Source: an uncultured Methanosarcinales archaeon (GTDB lineage Archaea; Nanobdellota; Nanobdellia; Woesearchaeales; GW2011-AR9). From it: 64,000 nt of DNA. Under the pieces are notes generated by a model that was given only the letters and a program-made list of their open reading frames with translations, was not told the DNA's origin and did not search any database. Below, piece after piece: positions 14,249 to 58,248 of the stretch (within the stretch, counting starts at the first letter, position 1; every line of letters begins with the position of its first letter). The position numbers were made by a program, and so were the translations under genes. The stretch lies in contig CAZKIP010000007.1 in assembly GCA_964552945.1 (NCBI GenBank), forward strand, positions 745 to 64,744, in the 5' to 3' direction.

Positions 14249-14578
14249 TTAACTTATTTTTAGAATTTTTTTAATTTTTTCAAAATTTGCTTTTATATCT
14301 GGTCCAAAATCCTCAATATTTAGTTTAGAAGCTTGCATTTCAGCCATAATTTTACGATATTTTTCAGGCCCTTTTTTGAGAACAAATGCATCAAGTTCTT
14401 TACTCCGATTTCCTTTAGAAGAGGCCATAGATAAATTCATCCTTAATTGGTTTATTTGTTTAGCGATAGCTGCAATTACGCTGTCACGATCTATCCTTTT
14501 TCCACCAGTTATTCTGGCCCATACACTGCTAATGCCCATTTTATTATAGAAATCGTTTGAATATAAATAAGTTTTCAA
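14249..14578 (-). CDS. Hypothetical 109-aa basic protein.
   Basis: ORF only. No motif recognised. Confidence 0.35.
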   Translation of the reverse strand: MKTYLYSNDFYNKMGISSVWARITGGKRIDRDSVIAAIAKQINQLRMNLSMASSKGNRSKELDAFVLKKGPEKYRKIMAEMQASKLNIEDFGPDIKANFEKIKKILKIS

Positions 14579-14586
14579 AAATTAGG

Positions 14587-14705
14587 CTTAATCCAAAATA
14601 ACACAATTTAGTATACTGGCGCCAATTGAGGCACACGGGGTCTCGTCAAAGAGCCCGTAATCGTGCCGTGCCCCAGTATACTAATGTCCTCTATTCTGGA
14701 TGAAG
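14587..14705. repeat. Copy 1 of a conserved GC-rich nested-hairpin element. Either a candidate structured ncRNA or a MITE-like palindromic repeat.
   Basis: Outer inverted repeat CTTAATCCAAAATA / TATTCTGGATGAAG. Inner stem GTATACTGG (14611-14619) / CCAGTATAC (14674-14682). The interior is GC-rich with GGCAC/GTGCC and ACGGG/CCCGT pairs. The element sits in the intergenic region 3' of the PNP gene. Confidence 0.5.
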
Positions 14706-14713
14706 CCCAAAAA

Positions 14714-15625
14714 TTATGGGTTCAGAACCCTTTCTCTGTAAAGTCTAAAGAAATTTGCTACAACCTTCTCAATTCTTTGTTTCACTAGAGGATCTTCTAA
14801 AACTGCGGTAACTTCGGCATGTGAAGTAGAGTTAGTACCATCCTCTTTTGTTGAGTTGGTTATTAAACTCATCCCAACACAATTCATGCCCCTATTTCTT
14901 GCAGCTTCCACTTCAGGGATAGTTGACATCCCCACTGCTTGTAATCCCATATTCCTGAAAGCAATAACTTGCGCTTTAGTTTCATAAGTAGGACCAATTA
15001 CCGCACCATAAGATCCTAGATGCATCTCTCCAGCTTTCATTAATAAAGCAGTTAATTGTTCATCATAAGCATCATGCATTGGAACAAATCGTTGTAAATT
15101 TTCTTGGTCAATAGTTTTAAAATCCATCATTCTTCCAGATAAAGGACAAGGAATACCCAAAGACATATGGCTTGATAAAGCCATTAATTCTCCTACCTTA
15201 TAACTTGTATCTAATCCTCCTGCAGCATTGGTTACAAAATAATTTGCCACACCTAAATTAGCCATTACATTGACTGCAAAAACGGTCTCTAAAATCCCTT
15301 GATTGAATGGTTTATCAACAACTTCATAAAAATGAGTCCTTCCTTGTAAACCAATAATTGGTACCCCTTCTAATTCTCCAAGGTGTAGATTACCAGCATG
15401 ACCTTTTACTGTAGGTACAGGAAATCTAGGAATTTCACTATAAGGAATTATTCTAGAATTATCTATTTTATCAGCCAATCCTCCCAATCCAGAACCTAGA
15501 GTTAAAGCAAATAAAGGCTTAAAATCACCCATCTGTTCTTTTAAGTATTGAGCTGCTTCATCAACATGAGCTTCATAATTACGTTGAAAATCCAATGCGT
15601 CAGTGAGAATTTTTAATGAGTCCAT
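14714..15625 (-). CDS. Purine nucleoside phosphorylase (trimeric PNP/MTAP family).
   Basis: The motifs GSGLGGL, VKGHAGNLHLGELEGVPIIGLQGRTHFYE and MSTIPEVEAAR match the PNP family-1 signatures. Confidence 0.8.
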   Translation of the reverse strand: MDSLKILTDALDFQRNYEAHVDEAAQYLKEQMGDFKPLFALTLGSGLGGLADKIDNSRIIPYSEIPRFPVPTVKGHAGNLHLGELEGVPIIGLQGRTHFYEVVDKPFNQGILETVFAVNVMANLGVANYFVTNAAGGLDTSYKVGELMALSSHMSLGIPCPLSGRMMDFKTIDQENLQRFVPMHDAYDEQLTALLMKAGEMHLGSYGAVIGPTYETKAQVIAFRNMGLQAVGMSTIPEVEAARNRGMNCVGMSLITNSTKEDGTNSTSHAEVTAVLEDPLVKQRIEKVVANFFRLYRERVLNP

Positions 15626-16038: not shown

Positions 16039-16416
16039 ATGAATAAGGAATTCTGGATTAAAGTTCTCTACATCATCCACATCCCAATAACAGTTTTTTG
16101 GTTTGGGCTATTTCTCATCCCAACTTATTTCTGGGCTGATAGAATGCTTTTTCAATTTTGGTACGCCATAGGACTTGTATCTATCCAATATCTGTGGGGG
16201 ATTCTTGTTTTTAGAAAATTTAGTTCAATCTGTCCTGTAACAACGATGATGCAACTTCTTCGAGGATATGATTTAAATGATGAAAGAAATTATAAACATG
16301 GTTTTATTGCTGAATTCATACAAGACTTAAACCTACCTCTGAAACCTAAACACACAGATTATTTACTTAAAACAACTTTTGTAGTAATAGTTCTTCAATA
16401 TATTTTTTTAGTTTAA
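16039..16416 (+). CDS. Small integral membrane protein (3-4 TM).
   Basis: Hydrophobic helices in a 125-aa ORF. Confidence 0.4.
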   Translation: MNKEFWIKVLYIIHIPITVFWFGLFLIPTYFWADRMLFQFWYAIGLVSIQYLWGILVFRKFSSICPVTTMMQLLRGYDLNDERNYKHGFIAEFIQDLNLPLKPKHTDYLLKTTFVVIVLQYIFLV

Positions 16417-16420
16417 TCGG

Positions 16421-16539
16421 GCTTCTTCCAGAATAACATACCTTTGTATACTGGCGCCCTGACGAAGTCGAGCCGATGAGCGAAGCTCATGATAACGGCG
16501 TGCTCCAGTATACAAATTCACTATATTCTGGATGAAGCA
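16421..16539. repeat. Copy 2 of the nested-hairpin element. It exactly fills the gap between two convergent genes.
   Basis: Outer inverted repeat CTTCTTCCAGAATA / TATTCTGGATGAAG. Inner stem GTATACTGG / CCAGTATAC. Internal pairs CGCC/GGCG. Apical stem ATGAGC-GAA-GCTCAT. About 54% GC in a roughly 33% GC genome. Confidence 0.55.
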
Positions 16540-16544
16540 GTTAA

Positions 16545-17228
16545 TCACATAAACACAGAAACTAAATTACCAATCAAATAACCTATAATTCCAGCCCCTA
16601 TACCAACTAAAACAATTTCTATCCCAGATTTAAACCAATTTCTTTTGGTGTAATAAGTCTTAGATAACCCCACCAAAAATAGAACTATTATTGTAAGAAC
16701 TATCGCATATGTAACCGCGGTCATTCCAGAAGAAAGAATGAACGGAGTAATTGGAAATGCCGACCCTACTAAAAAAGAAAGAAACATTGTAAAAGCATTT
16801 CTAAATGGAAGATCCAACTTCTTTTTTGATATTCCAACCTTTTTTCTAACAAGATAATTACAAATAAATTCGGGATGTTTCTTTCTTGAATGGTCCTTAA
16901 AAAGAGAACCAATCTCTTTTCTAGATAAACCTTCTTTTACCAAAATGCTTTTCATTTCACCAATACATTTTTGAGGATTTTTTTCAAGATACTTCCTTGT
17001 TGAGGTAATTTCCTGTTCATAAACTTCTCTCTGTGACTTAGCGGAAAGATAACTACCTGCAGACATTGAAAAAGCACCGGCAAACATACTTGCTAATCCA
17101 GCTAATACCACCATTAAATTGCTACCACCACCAACATAAACTCCCAAAACTAAACCAAGGTTAGAAACCAAACCATCCTCGATACCAAAAACAAAATCGC
17201 GCATCAATTCGCTTAGACCCCTAGTCAT
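16545..17228 (-). CDS. VIT1/CCC1-family iron/manganese transporter.
   Basis: N-terminal FGIEDGLVSNLGLVLGV motif and hydrophobic C-terminal TM helices typical of the VIT/DUF125 family. Confidence 0.7.
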   Translation of the reverse strand: MTRGLSELMRDFVFGIEDGLVSNLGLVLGVYVGGGSNLMVVLAGLASMFAGAFSMSAGSYLSAKSQREVYEQEITSTRKYLEKNPQKCIGEMKSILVKEGLSRKEIGSLFKDHSRKKHPEFICNYLVRKKVGISKKKLDLPFRNAFTMFLSFLVGSAFPITPFILSSGMTAVTYAIVLTIIVLFLVGLSKTYYTKRNWFKSGIEIVLVGIGAGIIGYLIGNLVSVFM

Positions 17229-53839: not shown

Positions 53840-55726
53840 TTAATCAAAATAAATTCTGATAATTCCTTTAACTTTCTGAACTCTTCTAACCATTTCTTTA
53901 AGATGTTCCAGATTTCTAGGGATTACTTTGAAAGAGCATTTAGCGTCAACACCAAGCAACTTAGCTTTCGCTTCCTTAACTTCAAATCCTGCTTGAGCAA
54001 TTGTATGTAAAAGGTCTGCTAAAAGACCACTTCTTTCTCCGGCTTCAACATGGAAAGAGATTCTTTGTGTGTAATTCTCTTTCCATTTAACCGGAATTAA
54101 CTTATCTTCTTTCTTTAAAGCTTCTTTACAATTATCTCTGTGAACAGAAATTATTCTTCTTTTTGTTATTAAACCAACAATGTTTTCTCCTGGCAAAGCT
54201 TGACAACATTTGGCCAAAGTACAAACTGCCCGAGGATATTCTTCAGATGAAACTAAGACTCCTTTTTCTTCTTTTACAACTGGTTTAAATAGACGGAAAT
54301 GGAAAGAAGGTAAATTTTCGTAATCTTTCAAAACTTTTCTTATTCTTTGTCTAGCTTTTGAAGATGAAACTATTTTAATCCAACTTCTTCTTGGTCTTTG
54401 TTTTTTATGAGTAATAATTTCTACAACGTCCCCATTCACAAGTTTATGTCTTAACGGAACAAATTTTCCATTAACCTTCCCTCCAACACATTTGCTTCCA
54501 ATTTCTTCATGAACTGCATAAGCAAAATCAAGAACTGTAGATTCAACAGGTAATTCTTTCAAATCTCCGAGAGGAGTATAACAATAAATTTTATCACCAA
54601 AAACATCTACTTGGACCGATTCCAAAAATTCATTATCTTTTTTCTTTAAATCAAGAACCTCTTTCATCCAAGCAATTTTTTTCTCAAATATTTTGTCAGA
54701 TTTGAAATCCTTATATCTCCAATGTGCAGCAATTCCTTCTTCAGCAAACTCCTCCATCTCTGGAGTCCTTATTTGAACTTCGATTACCCACCCATTGTTT
54801 AATTTAACTCCAGTATGCAATGATCGATAAAAATTAGGTTTTGGATTAGCGATGTAATCTTTCAATCTACCTTCAATTGGTTCAAACTTCTCATGTAACA
54901 ATCCTAAAAAAGTGTAACAATCTTTTTCGGTAGGAACAATTACCCTTATCCCTAACAAATCAAATAAATCATTTAACCTTTTCTTTTTACGAACTACTTT
55001 TTTGTAAATACTGTAGATATGTTTTGGTCTCCCTTTAATCTTTAAAAGATCTAATTTTCCCCTAGACATTTCCTTTAAAAGTTCAATGACCCTTTCTATT
55101 TTATGTTCTCTTTCTTCTCTTGTTTCTTCCAGGAACTCTTGTATTTCAACATGTTTTTTTGGATTGATAATATAAAAAGCACAATCTTCCAACTGGACTC
55201 TTATTCTTTCAACCCCTAACCTATAAGCAAGAGGTGCATATACTTCCAAAACTTCAGAAGCCAACCTTTCTCTTTCATCAGGAGGAAAAACATGGACAGA
55301 ATTTAAGTTATCTAATTTATTTGCCAATTTGATAAAAATAACTCTTAAATCATGCAAGGCTGTAACCATAATTCTTCTTAAGGCATCTCCAGGGACATTC
55401 ACATTGTTAATCTTAATATGTCTTAATGTATTGACCTCATTCAATAAAGAAACAATGTTCTTCCCAAATTTATCTTCTATCTCCTTTTCAGGAATTTTAT
55501 CCAATAAACCATGTAATAATCCTGCCAAAACAGTTTCTGGGTCTGCTTTATTTTCAACTAGAATTTTTCCAACACGAATATTATGTTCAGAAAATAAATC
55601 GCCAGCTAGACGTTTCTCCTTCCCCAACTGTTCTTCTACATAATTAACAGCCTTTTCAAAAAGAAGAAGGTCTTCTTCAGTATAACCCTTGCCTCTACAC
55701 AGCAAAAGAAAAGAATTTCCTTCCAT
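53840..55726 (-). CDS. Long RelA/SpoT-homolog (RSH) (p)ppGpp synthetase. The domain order is degenerate HD, synthetase, TGS, CC/ZFD, ACT.
   Basis: The synthetase motifs are GRPKHIYSIYKKV, DLLGIRVIV, YRSLHTGV and EVQIRT. The TGS is YCYTPLGDLKELPVESTVLDFAYAVH..GD. The zinc-finger domain is CTLAKCCQALPGENIVGLIT..ISVHRDNC. The C-terminal domain is ACT. In the HD motif position, LLHGLLDK has Asp replaced by Gly. Confidence 0.85.
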   Translation of the reverse strand: MEGNSFLLLCRGKGYTEEDLLLFEKAVNYVEEQLGKEKRLAGDLFSEHNIRVGKILVENKADPETVLAGLLHGLLDKIPEKEIEDKFGKNIVSLLNEVNTLRHIKINNVNVPGDALRRIMVTALHDLRVIFIKLANKLDNLNSVHVFPPDERERLASEVLEVYAPLAYRLGVERIRVQLEDCAFYIINPKKHVEIQEFLEETREEREHKIERVIELLKEMSRGKLDLLKIKGRPKHIYSIYKKVVRKKKRLNDLFDLLGIRVIVPTEKDCYTFLGLLHEKFEPIEGRLKDYIANPKPNFYRSLHTGVKLNNGWVIEVQIRTPEMEEFAEEGIAAHWRYKDFKSDKIFEKKIAWMKEVLDLKKKDNEFLESVQVDVFGDKIYCYTPLGDLKELPVESTVLDFAYAVHEEIGSKCVGGKVNGKFVPLRHKLVNGDVVEIITHKKQRPRRSWIKIVSSSKARQRIRKVLKDYENLPSFHFRLFKPVVKEEKGVLVSSEEYPRAVCTLAKCCQALPGENIVGLITKRRIISVHRDNCKEALKKEDKLIPVKWKENYTQRISFHVEAGERSGLLADLLHTIAQAGFEVKEAKAKLLGVDAKCSFKVIPRNLEHLKEMVRRVQKVKGIIRIYFD

Positions 55727-57028: not shown

Positions 57029-57082
57029 CGCTAAAGATAAGAAAAGAATTATCCTTAATTAAAGTATTGCTTATTCAACCCC

Positions 57083-57189
57083 ATCCGGAATAACACTTTT
57101 TTGTATAATGTTGCCCTGACGTAGTCGAGCCGATGGGCGTAAGCCCATAATGACGGCGTGCACCAGTATACAAAAACATCCATTCCAGA
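57083..57189. repeat. Copy 3 of the nested-hairpin element.
   Basis: Outer repeat ATCCGGAATA / CATTCCAGAT. Inner stem GTATAATG.../CCAGTATAC. The apical stem is ATGGGC-GTAA-GCCCAT, a compensatory double change relative to copy 2. Confidence 0.55.
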
Positions 57190-57195
57190 TATTTC

Positions 57196-58248
57196 TTATT
57201 CTAAAAGTTTAAGCTTGGGTTTAGAGGTAGATTTAGGTTCAGCTGAGAAAGTTCCAATATCGTTCCTAAAATATTGTGTAGGGACGTACAAACCATCATC
57301 TGTAGTTCTGACCCAATCTTCTTCCAAAAGAAAATTGGCAATTTCTCTTCGTAAAGTTGCGTTCTCCACTATTTTGCTCAAATCTTGCTGCGCAACCCCT
57401 CTACTATCTCTAATTGCAGAATATAGTTTATCAACCTCCTCTTTAAAAGGCAATACAGCACAATTATTACAAACTGGAGCATAAACAATCCTCCCATCTT
57501 CCGCTTCTTCAATTCTTTTAGTTTTATCAAAATAAGGGGCAGAAACATATTTTCCAATAATATTGTTTCCTTTTTTATCATCAAAATCATAAAGAGACAT
57601 CTCACCTGCCAATTCTCCAATATCTGCCTCTTCAACAAAATCAAGAGACCATAATCTTTGAGAATGAGAAGCATCATCACCACAATTTTTTCCTCTAATA
57701 AGAGATTTGCAAACTGGATTCAATTGAATTGAACGTACGTAAGGAAAAATTGCTCTAACATGTCCAAAAGGACGATGTCTGAAATCATACTCTAACCCAG
57801 AAACTCCTAAAGTTATTCCCCTCTTTCTACACCAAGAGATAAATTGGATTGCTTCATTAGCTCCCTTTTCATCAAGGCAAAACAAATTAATTTCATCAAT
57901 CACTACAGCACTAATATCTCTATATTTCCAATGTTTTGCGCCGTCAATAACAATTCTTCCATTCTCTCCTTGATCTGCAATTTTTCTAGAATGAATTTTT
58001 TCCATTCTAAATTCTAAATCAGCAACAATTTCAGGAAAGCCCTGAACGGTTTTGGCAGGATATCCCTCCCTACCATCTACTACTAGTTGATTGACCCCAT
58101 CTCTAGTGTTAAAATGAGAATTATAAGCTACAAAATTTTTTCCGGCATGATGAAAAAGTTCAAGCATGGCAACAACAGCTTTAGTCTTACCCCCATTCAT
58201 AATAGAAAACCAGCCAAAAGATTTCCCTTTAAGATCTTCCACGCTCAT
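57196..58248 (-). CDS. tdk: Thymidine kinase with a roughly 140-aa C-terminal extension.
   Basis: The P-loop is FSIMNGGKTKA (TK-type Y/FSxMNxGKS/T). Walker B is VVIDEINLF. The LEYDFRHRPFG region aligns with the TK lasso. The zinc-ribbon cysteines are NPVCKSLIRGKNC and a later CNNC. The extension has no recognised family. Confidence 0.6.
   Translation of the reverse strand: MSVEDLKGKSFGWFSIMNGGKTKAVVAMLELFHHAGKNFVAYNSHFNTRDGVNQLVVDGREGYPAKTVQGFPEIVADLEFRMEKIHSRKIADQGENGRIVIDGAKHWKYRDISAVVIDEINLFCLDEKGANEAIQFISWCRKRGITLGVSGLEYDFRHRPFGHVRAIFPYVRSIQLNPVCKSLIRGKNCGDDASHSQRLWSLDFVEEADIGELAGEMSLYDFDDKKGNNIIGKYVSAPYFDKTKRIEEAEDGRIVYAPVCNNCAVLPFKEEVDKLYSAIRDSRGVAQQDLSKIVENATLRREIANFLLEEDWVRTTDDGLYVPTQYFRNDIGTFSAEPKSTSKPKLKLLE

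Follow-up and report, generated by a model that had tools for sequence, protein, structure and literature searches.

What are the GC-rich hairpins that recur directly after genes in an AT-rich archaeal genome: genes for structured RNAs, or small transposons? Three such elements of ~120 nt, hereafter copies 1, 2 and 3, lie on contig CAZKIP010000007.1 within the stretch of 64,000 nt that was analyzed here as a whole (the window), every one in + orientation (Table 1). An earlier note, made from the letters of the window alone, had proposed either a structured non-coding RNA (ncRNA) or a miniature inverted-repeat transposable element (MITE). The second half of that proposal stood, on the evidence of terminal repeats, target-site duplications, empty sites and dispersal; the first half, taken as a family of free-standing host ncRNA genes, found no support, because the copies are non-orthologous in position and lie within transposon ends. 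The three elements are almost certainly copies of a MITE family of DPANN archaea of the Woesearchaeota/Nanoarchaeota type. Their interior is a conserved, covarying and asymmetric module that is kept across lineages with different arms and closing helices, and we consider it quite probable that a MITE family with a core acting as a folded strand is the best account of the whole.

Three structured elements in the window

All three elements were found at the places that the earlier note had given. The true GG...CC ends lie a few bases outside its boundaries, and it had missed the direct repeats just outside these ends, which were revealed when the flanks were printed. The outer inverted repeat that it described is common to the three copies; the inner stem, GTATACTGG/CCAGTATAC, pairs perfectly only in the first two and is degenerate in copy 3 (GTATAATGT/ACCAGTATAC). 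The high GC content that it had noticed is real, at 0.54-0.58 from P1 to P1 (helices are defined below) and 0.60-0.62 over P2-P3, against 0.335 for the window. A MAFFT alignment of the three copies has a mean column identity of 76%, and none of 200 shuffles of any copy folded as stably as the copy itself (z in Table 1).

Two covariance models were built: R1 of the whole element and R2 of the core only. R2 was built without the three-way-junction copies, because MAFFT misaligned them, and so represents two-way-junction copies alone. Scanning the 64 kb with R1 recovered the three known copies (scores in Table 1) and no fourth. R2 with filters off likewise returned the same three copies only, scoring 69 bits on copy 1 (E 3e-17) and 19 bits on copy 2.

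Transposon ends, target-site duplications and empty sites

The elements are bounded by terminal inverted repeats, GGC..TCCAGAATA / TATTCTGGA..GCC, and in most copies both ends read GG(C)NNTGTCCRGAAT (GGNNNTGTCCRGAAT-type ends). These repeats, with duplications outside them, were seen in most of the 38 copies taken from genomes and in each of the three in the window. The flanking direct repeat differs from site to site (examples are TATTCTTC, GATTAAAG, GAATAGTT and TGATGATGA), and in a systematic scan it was perfect over 8 bp in 14 and over 9 bp in 13 of the 39 copies scored; in the window it measures 9 bp at copy 1, 6 bp at copy 2 and 7 bp at copy 3. Fixed-length duplications point to a DDE-type cut-and-paste enzyme rather than reverse transcription. 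The terminal helix comprises 14 pairs, 89% complementary, 12 of them with changes on both sides across subfamilies. No open reading frame (ORF) of at least 50 aa lies wholly inside copy 1 or 2, and none of at least 70 aa, the shortest listed there, lies wholly inside copy 3. A small ORF was considered for some copies, in which a Shine-Dalgarno-like GGAGG is followed by ATG, and was rejected, the ATG not being conserved.

Insertion sites were compared with those of the nearest relatives, and the element was absent at two of the three sites, those of copies 1 and 3. Locus L079 (L numbers denote stretches of DNA from outside the window) encodes a protein 72% identical to 'MTAP', our working label for the PNP_UDP_1-family phosphorylase gene beside copy 1 (14714-15625, - strand). 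The same gene pair is there separated by a 67-nt spacer that lacks the element and keeps the promoter block TTTTTGAAAA(C/G)TTATTTATAT; the exact empty site of copy 1 can be aligned there. L082 encodes a thymidine-kinase-like protein 87% identical to the one beside copy 3, with no element in the 156 nt examined downstream of the gene; its spacer is too diverged for an exact empty-site alignment. One gene beyond the equivalent of the copy 1 site, L079 carries two related elements back to back (1375-1568), one with diverged arms and closing helix, the other a composite cut by the contig end.

Every window copy abuts or overlaps a stop codon, as the earlier note had said. Copy 1 adjoins the phosphorylase gene, copy 2 lies between a DUF2784-like ORF (+ strand) and the VIT1 gene (- strand), and copy 3 adjoins the thymidine-kinase-like gene (- strand); the stop codons are given in Table 1. 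The adjacency arises because the duplicated target includes the neighbor's stop codon at all three sites. Gene calls confirmed the further claim that copy 2 exactly fills the gap between two convergent genes, which it does because its two duplicates provide the stops of both; judging from these duplicates, the ends of the two genes must have abutted (TAATCA) before the insertion.

Distribution and placement of related copies

Relatives were sought in two ways. The first scan used an exact pattern of core positions only, over one genome per species, and matched 35 stretches, nearly all from metagenome-assembled genomes (MAGs) of Woesearchaeota/Nanoarchaeota type, often on several contigs of one MAG; some of these MAGs are labelled 'Methanosarcinales'. 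The sole bacterial match (L006, Thermodesulfovibrionales) has no structure and was set aside as chance. The second scan, of JGI metagenomes, used a left-arm pattern only, and the core was present in 37 of the 41 stretches that it matched; the other four are chance matches (L040, and the eukaryotic-looking L046, L067 and L068). Overall, ~75 further copies were found in Woesearchaeota/Nanoarchaeota MAGs and metagenomes, scattered over unrelated intergenic sites and flanked for the most part by duplications of 8-9 bp. Neither the core pattern nor an inverted-repeat pattern had any match in viral contigs.

Simple copies measure 115-131 nt between the duplications, and composite forms ~183-246 nt. 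Decayed or interrupted copies also exist (L029:5550-5690; L062). The copy in L062 looks truncated but is an intact one that holds a second small MITE-like insertion. This insert, at L062:1000-1105, is of a different kind, ~105 nt long with ends AGAGAAGTTTG / CAAACTTCTCT, and sits within P3b of the copy; the arrangement is a transposon inside a transposon. In L019, a tRNA gene (2838-2909) lies 48 nt downstream of a MITE copy, a placement that may be coincidence.

The positions of 39 copies among genes were classified: 14 lie between divergent genes, 18 in co-directional spacers and 3 between convergent genes, and 4 have a gene call on one side only. One end typically lies 42-49 nt from a start codon when measured from the alignment edge, which is 46-53 nt from the terminal repeat. 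This end stands just upstream of the block formed by the B recognition element (BRE) and TATA box; the other end is often a few bases from a stop codon. Such a pattern is what purifying selection on insertions would leave in compact genomes, and function is not required to explain it.

These data bear directly on the idea that the elements are immobile host ncRNA genes or intrinsic terminator hairpins. Stable GC-rich hairpins after stop codons in an AT-rich genome are what either would look like, and the covarying helices described below would also suit them. Neither accounts for flanking duplications and terminal inverted repeats, for copies that are absent at orthologous sites and present elsewhere in relatives, or for 14 copies between divergent promoters as against 3 between convergent genes. 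Archaeal termination, furthermore, uses T runs, not hairpins. We regard this explanation as largely refuted and give it very little credence.

A conserved, covarying core

On the + strand of the window copies, the terminal repeat is followed by an asymmetric internal loop, helix P1 (UUUGUAUACUGG / CCAGUAUACAAA) and a C mismatch. The core after P1 thus opens with a conserved C opposite any base, and continues with P2 (GC/GC), a one-sided junction C-NNNN-GA, P3a (GGCGC/GCGCC, GGCAC/GUGCC, GGUGC/GCACC or GCCG/CGGC) and P3b, a variable hairpin of 6-10 bp with a purine-rich loop; on the 3' side follow a bulge, AAUC and variants, and then GU. About a quarter of the copies, window copies 2 and 3 among them, have a small hairpin in place of the NNNN bulge, and this optional third hairpin covaries (GAC/GUC, GAU/AUC, GGC/GCC). 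The invariant nucleotides of the junction are GCC, GAG and CCGUGC.

Covariation was measured over 50 distinct copies. Paired cells make up 93%, versus 79% in column shuffles; changes on both sides occur in 31 of 41 pairs, including 8 of 8 in P3b and 4 of 5 in P3a, and none of 500 shuffles reached any of these measures. When partners were slid along the alignment as a control, pairing fell to 31-56%. These figures are to be read with the caveats that the alignment was fitted to the model, that the copies are related, and that each search pattern fixed some positions. Copies selected by the left arm show the same behavior: the inner pairs of P1 covary (CUGG/CCAG to CUAG/CUAG or CCUG/CAGG), and, of 17 complete simple copies, 16 retain CCGUGC at the 3' junction. 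The earlier note had reckoned that a pure MITE would lack covariation; the inner helices covary strongly and tolerate wobble pairs in a strand-specific way, and the explanation must therefore still allow for a folded single-stranded form, probably RNA.

Closing helices unrelated to one another are found on this same junction: GUAUACUGG, GUGAGCAG, GUAGAAAGUCAGC and AAAGCACUAU. The second of these belongs to composite elements, in which it is nested within P3b of an outer shell, and the third and fourth to L004:4858-4961 and L079:1375-1500, respectively. Composites were seen at L008:972-1217 and L044:340-524 and also in L048, L053, L070, L071 and L074, with the same arms and duplications; each holds a second, canonical core in the orientation opposite to that of the shell, whose own junction is degenerate. 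The core at L004:4858-4961 (- strand) has no recognizable terminal repeats; it lies ~230 nt from a canonical copy and 12 nt from the start of an ORF that resembles, by eye, class I aldolase / ADH synthase. Over 414,737 bases of related loci together with the 64-kb window, R2 found no core outside MITE-like elements.

Which strand, and which molecule, folds

If the two halves of a palindrome act as separate positions in duplex DNA, G·T and A·C mismatches are expected equally often. In the terminal repeats G·U and A·C stand at 27:25, in keeping with this expectation; in P1-P3 they stand at 17:2, three of the G·U cases being detectable only since the search pattern fixed one side. R2 matches one strand only. 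The inner part thus seems to be under selection as a single folded strand, in the polarity given here. That strand is probably RNA, with which the purine-rich hairpin loops of the + strand agree (a GUAA tetraloop in copy 3), a specific single DNA strand being the alternative. As to what the core does, we see an RNA-level role as evenly balanced; a role for single-stranded or structural DNA in transposition is a lesser possibility, and the absence of any specific role beyond maintenance of the hairpin would be rather surprising.

The main alternative at this point is a purely DNA-level MITE, whose fold-back interior is needed for transposition only and has no RNA role, for example because a cruciform or a snap-back of single-stranded DNA could join the ends, or could be bound by the transposase or by an architectural protein of the host. 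That the element transposes as DNA is evident from duplications, terminal repeats and empty sites; a conserved interior in recent insertions implies selection for mobility; orientation relative to genes is near-random, and the cores of composites point both ways. A length of 120 bp is below the persistence length of DNA, and a fold-back would help to unite the ends. G·T is, in addition, the most tolerated mismatch in single-stranded DNA as well. A cruciform or duplex site, however, predicts no asymmetry between G·T and A·C, yet the inner helices show one and the terminal repeats do not; and known DDE transposases act on duplex ends. The junction, moreover, outlives replacement of the arms and of the closing helix, whereas a binding site should co-vary with the ends. 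We hold this alternative to be possible, though doubtful.

A second alternative places the unit of selection in the core itself, as a new class of functional RNA that rides on MITEs and might bind a protein, be catalytic, or guide or regulate the cognate transposase. Invariant junction nucleotides, covarying helices and one optional helix are typical of functional RNAs; the motif keeps its form whichever arms and closing helix surround it; and the strand-specific wobble tolerance and purine-rich loops of the + strand fit well. Set against this are the failure of R2 ever to find the core outside MITE-like elements, the lack of promoter or terminator signals (see below), the lack of resemblance to known ribozymes or protein-binding motifs, with no Rfam match, K-turn or hammerhead, and the relatives that lack the element at the same loci, from which it follows that no host gene depends on a given copy. 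This alternative too is one that we entertain without favoring it, and the related proposition that the module is an undescribed functional RNA motif of DPANN archaea spread by MITEs is likewise tentative; on that proposition, the module might bind proteins or be catalytic, or might serve as an RNA by which the cognate transposase is controlled or assisted.

Comparison with known RNAs and elements

Rfam 15 at gathering thresholds gave no match anywhere in the window. Permissive Rfam scans of the window and related copies gave sub-threshold matches to miRNA-type hairpins and one to GA-cis (RF02987), and no match to hammerhead, twister, pistol or hatchet. In the GA-cis case, one subfamily (L007) could be aligned with the model's first hairpin at 22.9 bits (E 0.006, 181-nt search). 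Shared between them are an AGGAGG-like leader, a stem with a CGAAG loop, an AAU bulge on the 3' side, and CCG; the gathering score of 34.7 is not reached, and a 31-position part of the model is absent from the alignment. The assignment was rejected: it was not reproduced in another subfamily, in 20 other loci or in the window copies, and a chance match, to MIR1094, reached E 0.023.

The junction resembles a kink-turn or k-junction in having a helix, a one-sided bulge, a G-A that opens the next helix and an A facing G, with a third helix replacing the bulge in some copies. The kink-turn was rejected on three counts: the first G faces an invariant U and not A, the bulge is 5 nt and not 3, and there is no tandem sheared G·A. 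The earlier note had been unable to fit C/D-box or H/ACA motifs convincingly, and by-eye checks of the alignment agree, both failing at defining positions; C/D boxes are not conserved, CUGA being confined to the three-way-junction subfamily. The hammerhead was rejected as well, CUGANGA-like strings being absent from two-way-junction copies and overlapping the covarying hairpin, with no GAAA strand. Resemblances to group II domain 5, bulge-helix-bulge and dif/origin-box, also checked by eye, were each contradicted at a position that defines the motif.

The closest analogs in kind appear to be the structured bacterial MITEs ERIC/IRU, Correia (NEMIS) and RUP, which are non-coding elements of ~100-150 nt with terminal inverted repeats, situated between genes near gene ends. 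Like the family described here, the whole of each of these elements folds as a long imperfect hairpin with a conserved interior. They differ in host and duplication (bacterial, with TA or short duplications, versus DPANN with 8-9 bp), and there is no sequence similarity; the asymmetric junction kept across arm subfamilies, with its optional third helix, is a feature of the elements here.

An imperfect GC-rich palindrome with extrahelical bases is also found in REP/BIME-type and IS200/IS605-derived elements, which a tyrosine (HUH/Y1) transposase moves as single-stranded DNA, and the strand-specific folding signal would fit recognition of one strand. Such elements make no target-site duplications and have no terminal inverted repeats, whereas both are present here; no TnpA, RAYT or TnpB occurs among the Pfam-annotated genes around the window copies, and the Rfam searches gave no match to an IS605-type RNA. 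We therefore rate a REP- or IS605-type origin as very improbable.

Within the literature on DPANN archaea and Woesearchaeota, the search for this family found one bulk census of prokaryotic MITEs only, in the available part of which a Woesearchaea genome ranks among the most MITE-dense archaea, at ~105 per Mb (PMC11602168). The density of three copies per 64 kb here is of the same order. As far as that part of the census extends, the family, its conserved junction and its covariation are not described (PMC11602168).

Possible source of the transposase

Terminal GG and 8-9-bp duplications are hallmarks of the Merlin and IS1595 families (PMC8101967). The elements here share with the IS1595 family / Merlin superfamily both the GG termini and duplications of 8 or 9 bp, and of the known families this one would fit best; the searches for an autonomous parent yielded no gene for an IS1595-type transposase between matching ends. 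Parentage in IS1595/Merlin is on this basis a lead drawn from published hallmarks only. The same combination of GG ends and 8-9-bp duplications also fits ISL3 or IS256/Mutator-type elements.

Proposed explanation and points against it

We propose that a DDE-type transposase, supplied in trans, would cut and paste the copies with 8-9-bp staggered cuts; that in very compact genomes an insertion would survive only where it falls between a stop codon and the promoter that follows; and that duplication of the target would regenerate the stop codon at insertion. With moderate confidence, selection on the core would operate on the lineage of proliferating elements, since copies that were inserted recently still have the module. 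With similarly moderate confidence, the core would act as one folded strand, because G·U is tolerated and A·C is not, most likely as a hairpin of RNA that arises on transcription of the element. What such an RNA might do is speculation: it may modulate the cognate transposase or render an insertion harmless to its packed neighbors.

A number of observations weigh against parts of this explanation. As regards transposition, two window copies, 2 and 3, have duplications that are short or imperfect (6-7 bp); no autonomous element with matching ends came up when metagenomes were scanned with the left arm; and 556 kb of collected sequence contained no inverted-repeat pairs 250-6000 bp apart around a gene. 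As regards conservation, part of what seems to be conservation of the core is ascertainment, both search patterns having fixed some positions, and the wobble ratio becomes ~11:2 once pattern-biased cases are dropped and near-identical copies collapsed. As regards RNA, no convincing internal promoter or terminator was found in the elements. Copies in co-directional spacers were antisense in 12 cases versus sense in 6, which is not significant, and orientation relative to local GC skew was 29:20, not significant by sign test (Wilcoxon p 0.037); given this near-random orientation, read-through would make the favored strand only part of the time. The inverted cores of composites are, in addition, awkward for a single sense transcript. 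The claim that the core works as RNA is accordingly weak.

Host, neighboring genes and coordinates

The host is, to judge from its proteins, a DPANN archaeon with a GC content of ~33.5% in this stretch. Genes around the copies encode a proteasome-assembly PAC2 protein, enolase, an SMC_N-domain protein and the PNP_UDP_1-family purine-nucleoside phosphorylase, whose nearest named homologs belong to Woesearchaeota and Nanoarchaeota. The earlier note had been right to suppose an AT-rich archaeon, both the protein homologs and the related loci being of Woesearchaeota/Nanoarchaeota. The same contig was found in ENA, Logan and JGI metagenomes.

Four other features of the window were recorded. At the contig start, positions 5-1120 contain four tandem repeat copies of ~297-303 nt, 64-70% identical, which probably encode a repeated protein domain. 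A full-length RelA/SpoT homolog with HD_4, RelA_SpoT, TGS and ACT domains is encoded at 53840-55726 (- strand); long (p)ppGpp synthetase/hydrolases are uncommon in archaea. The 350-aa thymidine-kinase-like protein beside copy 3 (57196-58248, - strand) has only a partial thymidine-kinase domain (residues 97-200) and 9 homologs at E <= 1e-30, their named sources being MAGs of Nanoarchaeota or of unclassified archaea; a kinase variant specific to this lineage is one possibility. A short way upstream of copy 2, in the 3' part of the DUF2784-like ORF (16271-16347, + strand), Rfam C/D-box snoRNA/sRNA models match weakly (15-22 bits, E 2-9) at AAUGAUGA...CUGA, which might reflect either chance or a C/D sRNA that overlaps the ORF. 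A search of the 64-kb window with ARAGORN gave neither tRNA nor tmRNA.

Table 1. Coordinates of the three MITE copies and their parts (positions in the window; R1, whole-element covariance model; z, fold stability against shuffles)
Feature	Position	Strand	Remarks
Copy 1, left target-site duplication CAAAAATTA	14576..14584	.	same 9-mer on both sides
Copy 1, whole MITE, 123 nt, two-way-junction type	14585..14707	+	R1 117 bits, E 3e-28; fold -45 kcal/mol; z -6.8; site empty in L079
Copy 1, left terminal inverted repeat GGCTTAATCCAAAATA	14585..14600	+	pairs with 14692-14707, TATTCTGGATGAAGCC
Copy 1, structured core	14610..14682	+	R2 match; helix covariation across 50 distinct copies
Copy 1 core, P1	14610-19/14673-82	+	C mismatch 14620 opposite 14672
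Copy 1 core, P2	14621-22/14670-71	+	then junction CAATTGA 14623-29
Copy 1 core, P3a	GGCAC 14630-34/GTGCC 14663-67	+	P3b hairpin 14635-58
Copy 1 core, 3' bulge AATC	14659-62	+	GT at 14668-69
Copy 1, right terminal inverted repeat	14692..14707	+	
Copy 1, right target-site duplication CAAAAATTA	14708..14716	.	includes phosphorylase stop, 14714-16 (TTA = TAA on -)
Copy 2, left target-site duplication TTAATC (longer imperfect GTTTAATC)	16413..16418	.	overlaps TAA 16414-16 of the DUF2784-like ORF (+)
Copy 2, whole MITE, 122 nt, three-way-junction type	16419..16540	+	R1 93 bits, E 1e-21; fold -50.9 kcal/mol; z -8.0
Copy 2, P1	16443-54/16505-16	+	core 16455-16504
Copy 2, additional hairpin GAC-GAA-GTC	16461-69	+	
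Copy 2, right target-site duplication TTAATC	16541..16546	.	overlaps TCA (= TGA) stop 16545-47, VIT1 (-)
Copy 3, left target-site duplication CTTATTC	57070..57076	.	
Copy 3, whole MITE, 118 nt, three-way-junction type	57077..57194	+	R1 63 bits, E 2e-13; z -4.7
Copy 3, degenerate P1	57098-111/57162-176	+	outer repeats decayed
Copy 3, core with GUAA tetraloop on P3b	57112-57161	+	
Copy 3, right target-site duplication CTTATTC	57195..57201	.	includes thymidine-kinase-like stop TTA 57196-98 (-)

Implications for DPANN genomes

DPANN archaea have tiny, packed genomes whose mobile elements and non-coding RNAs have received almost no study, and for the most part no culture-based genetics is available for them. 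The family described here is an active-looking MITE lineage spread through many Woesearchaeota-type genomes, and the stop codon rebuilt at insertion would let neighboring genes survive an insertion between a stop and the next promoter. It also accounts for a recurrent GC-rich hairpin that might otherwise be annotated as an ncRNA gene or as a terminator, and the element may serve as a marker of insertion polymorphism among close uncultured strains. The core is a candidate for a cis-acting structure in the movement of short transposons, or for a new transposon-borne RNA motif; if the module is indeed an RNA motif spread by MITEs, selection would preserve the module and not the transposon ends.

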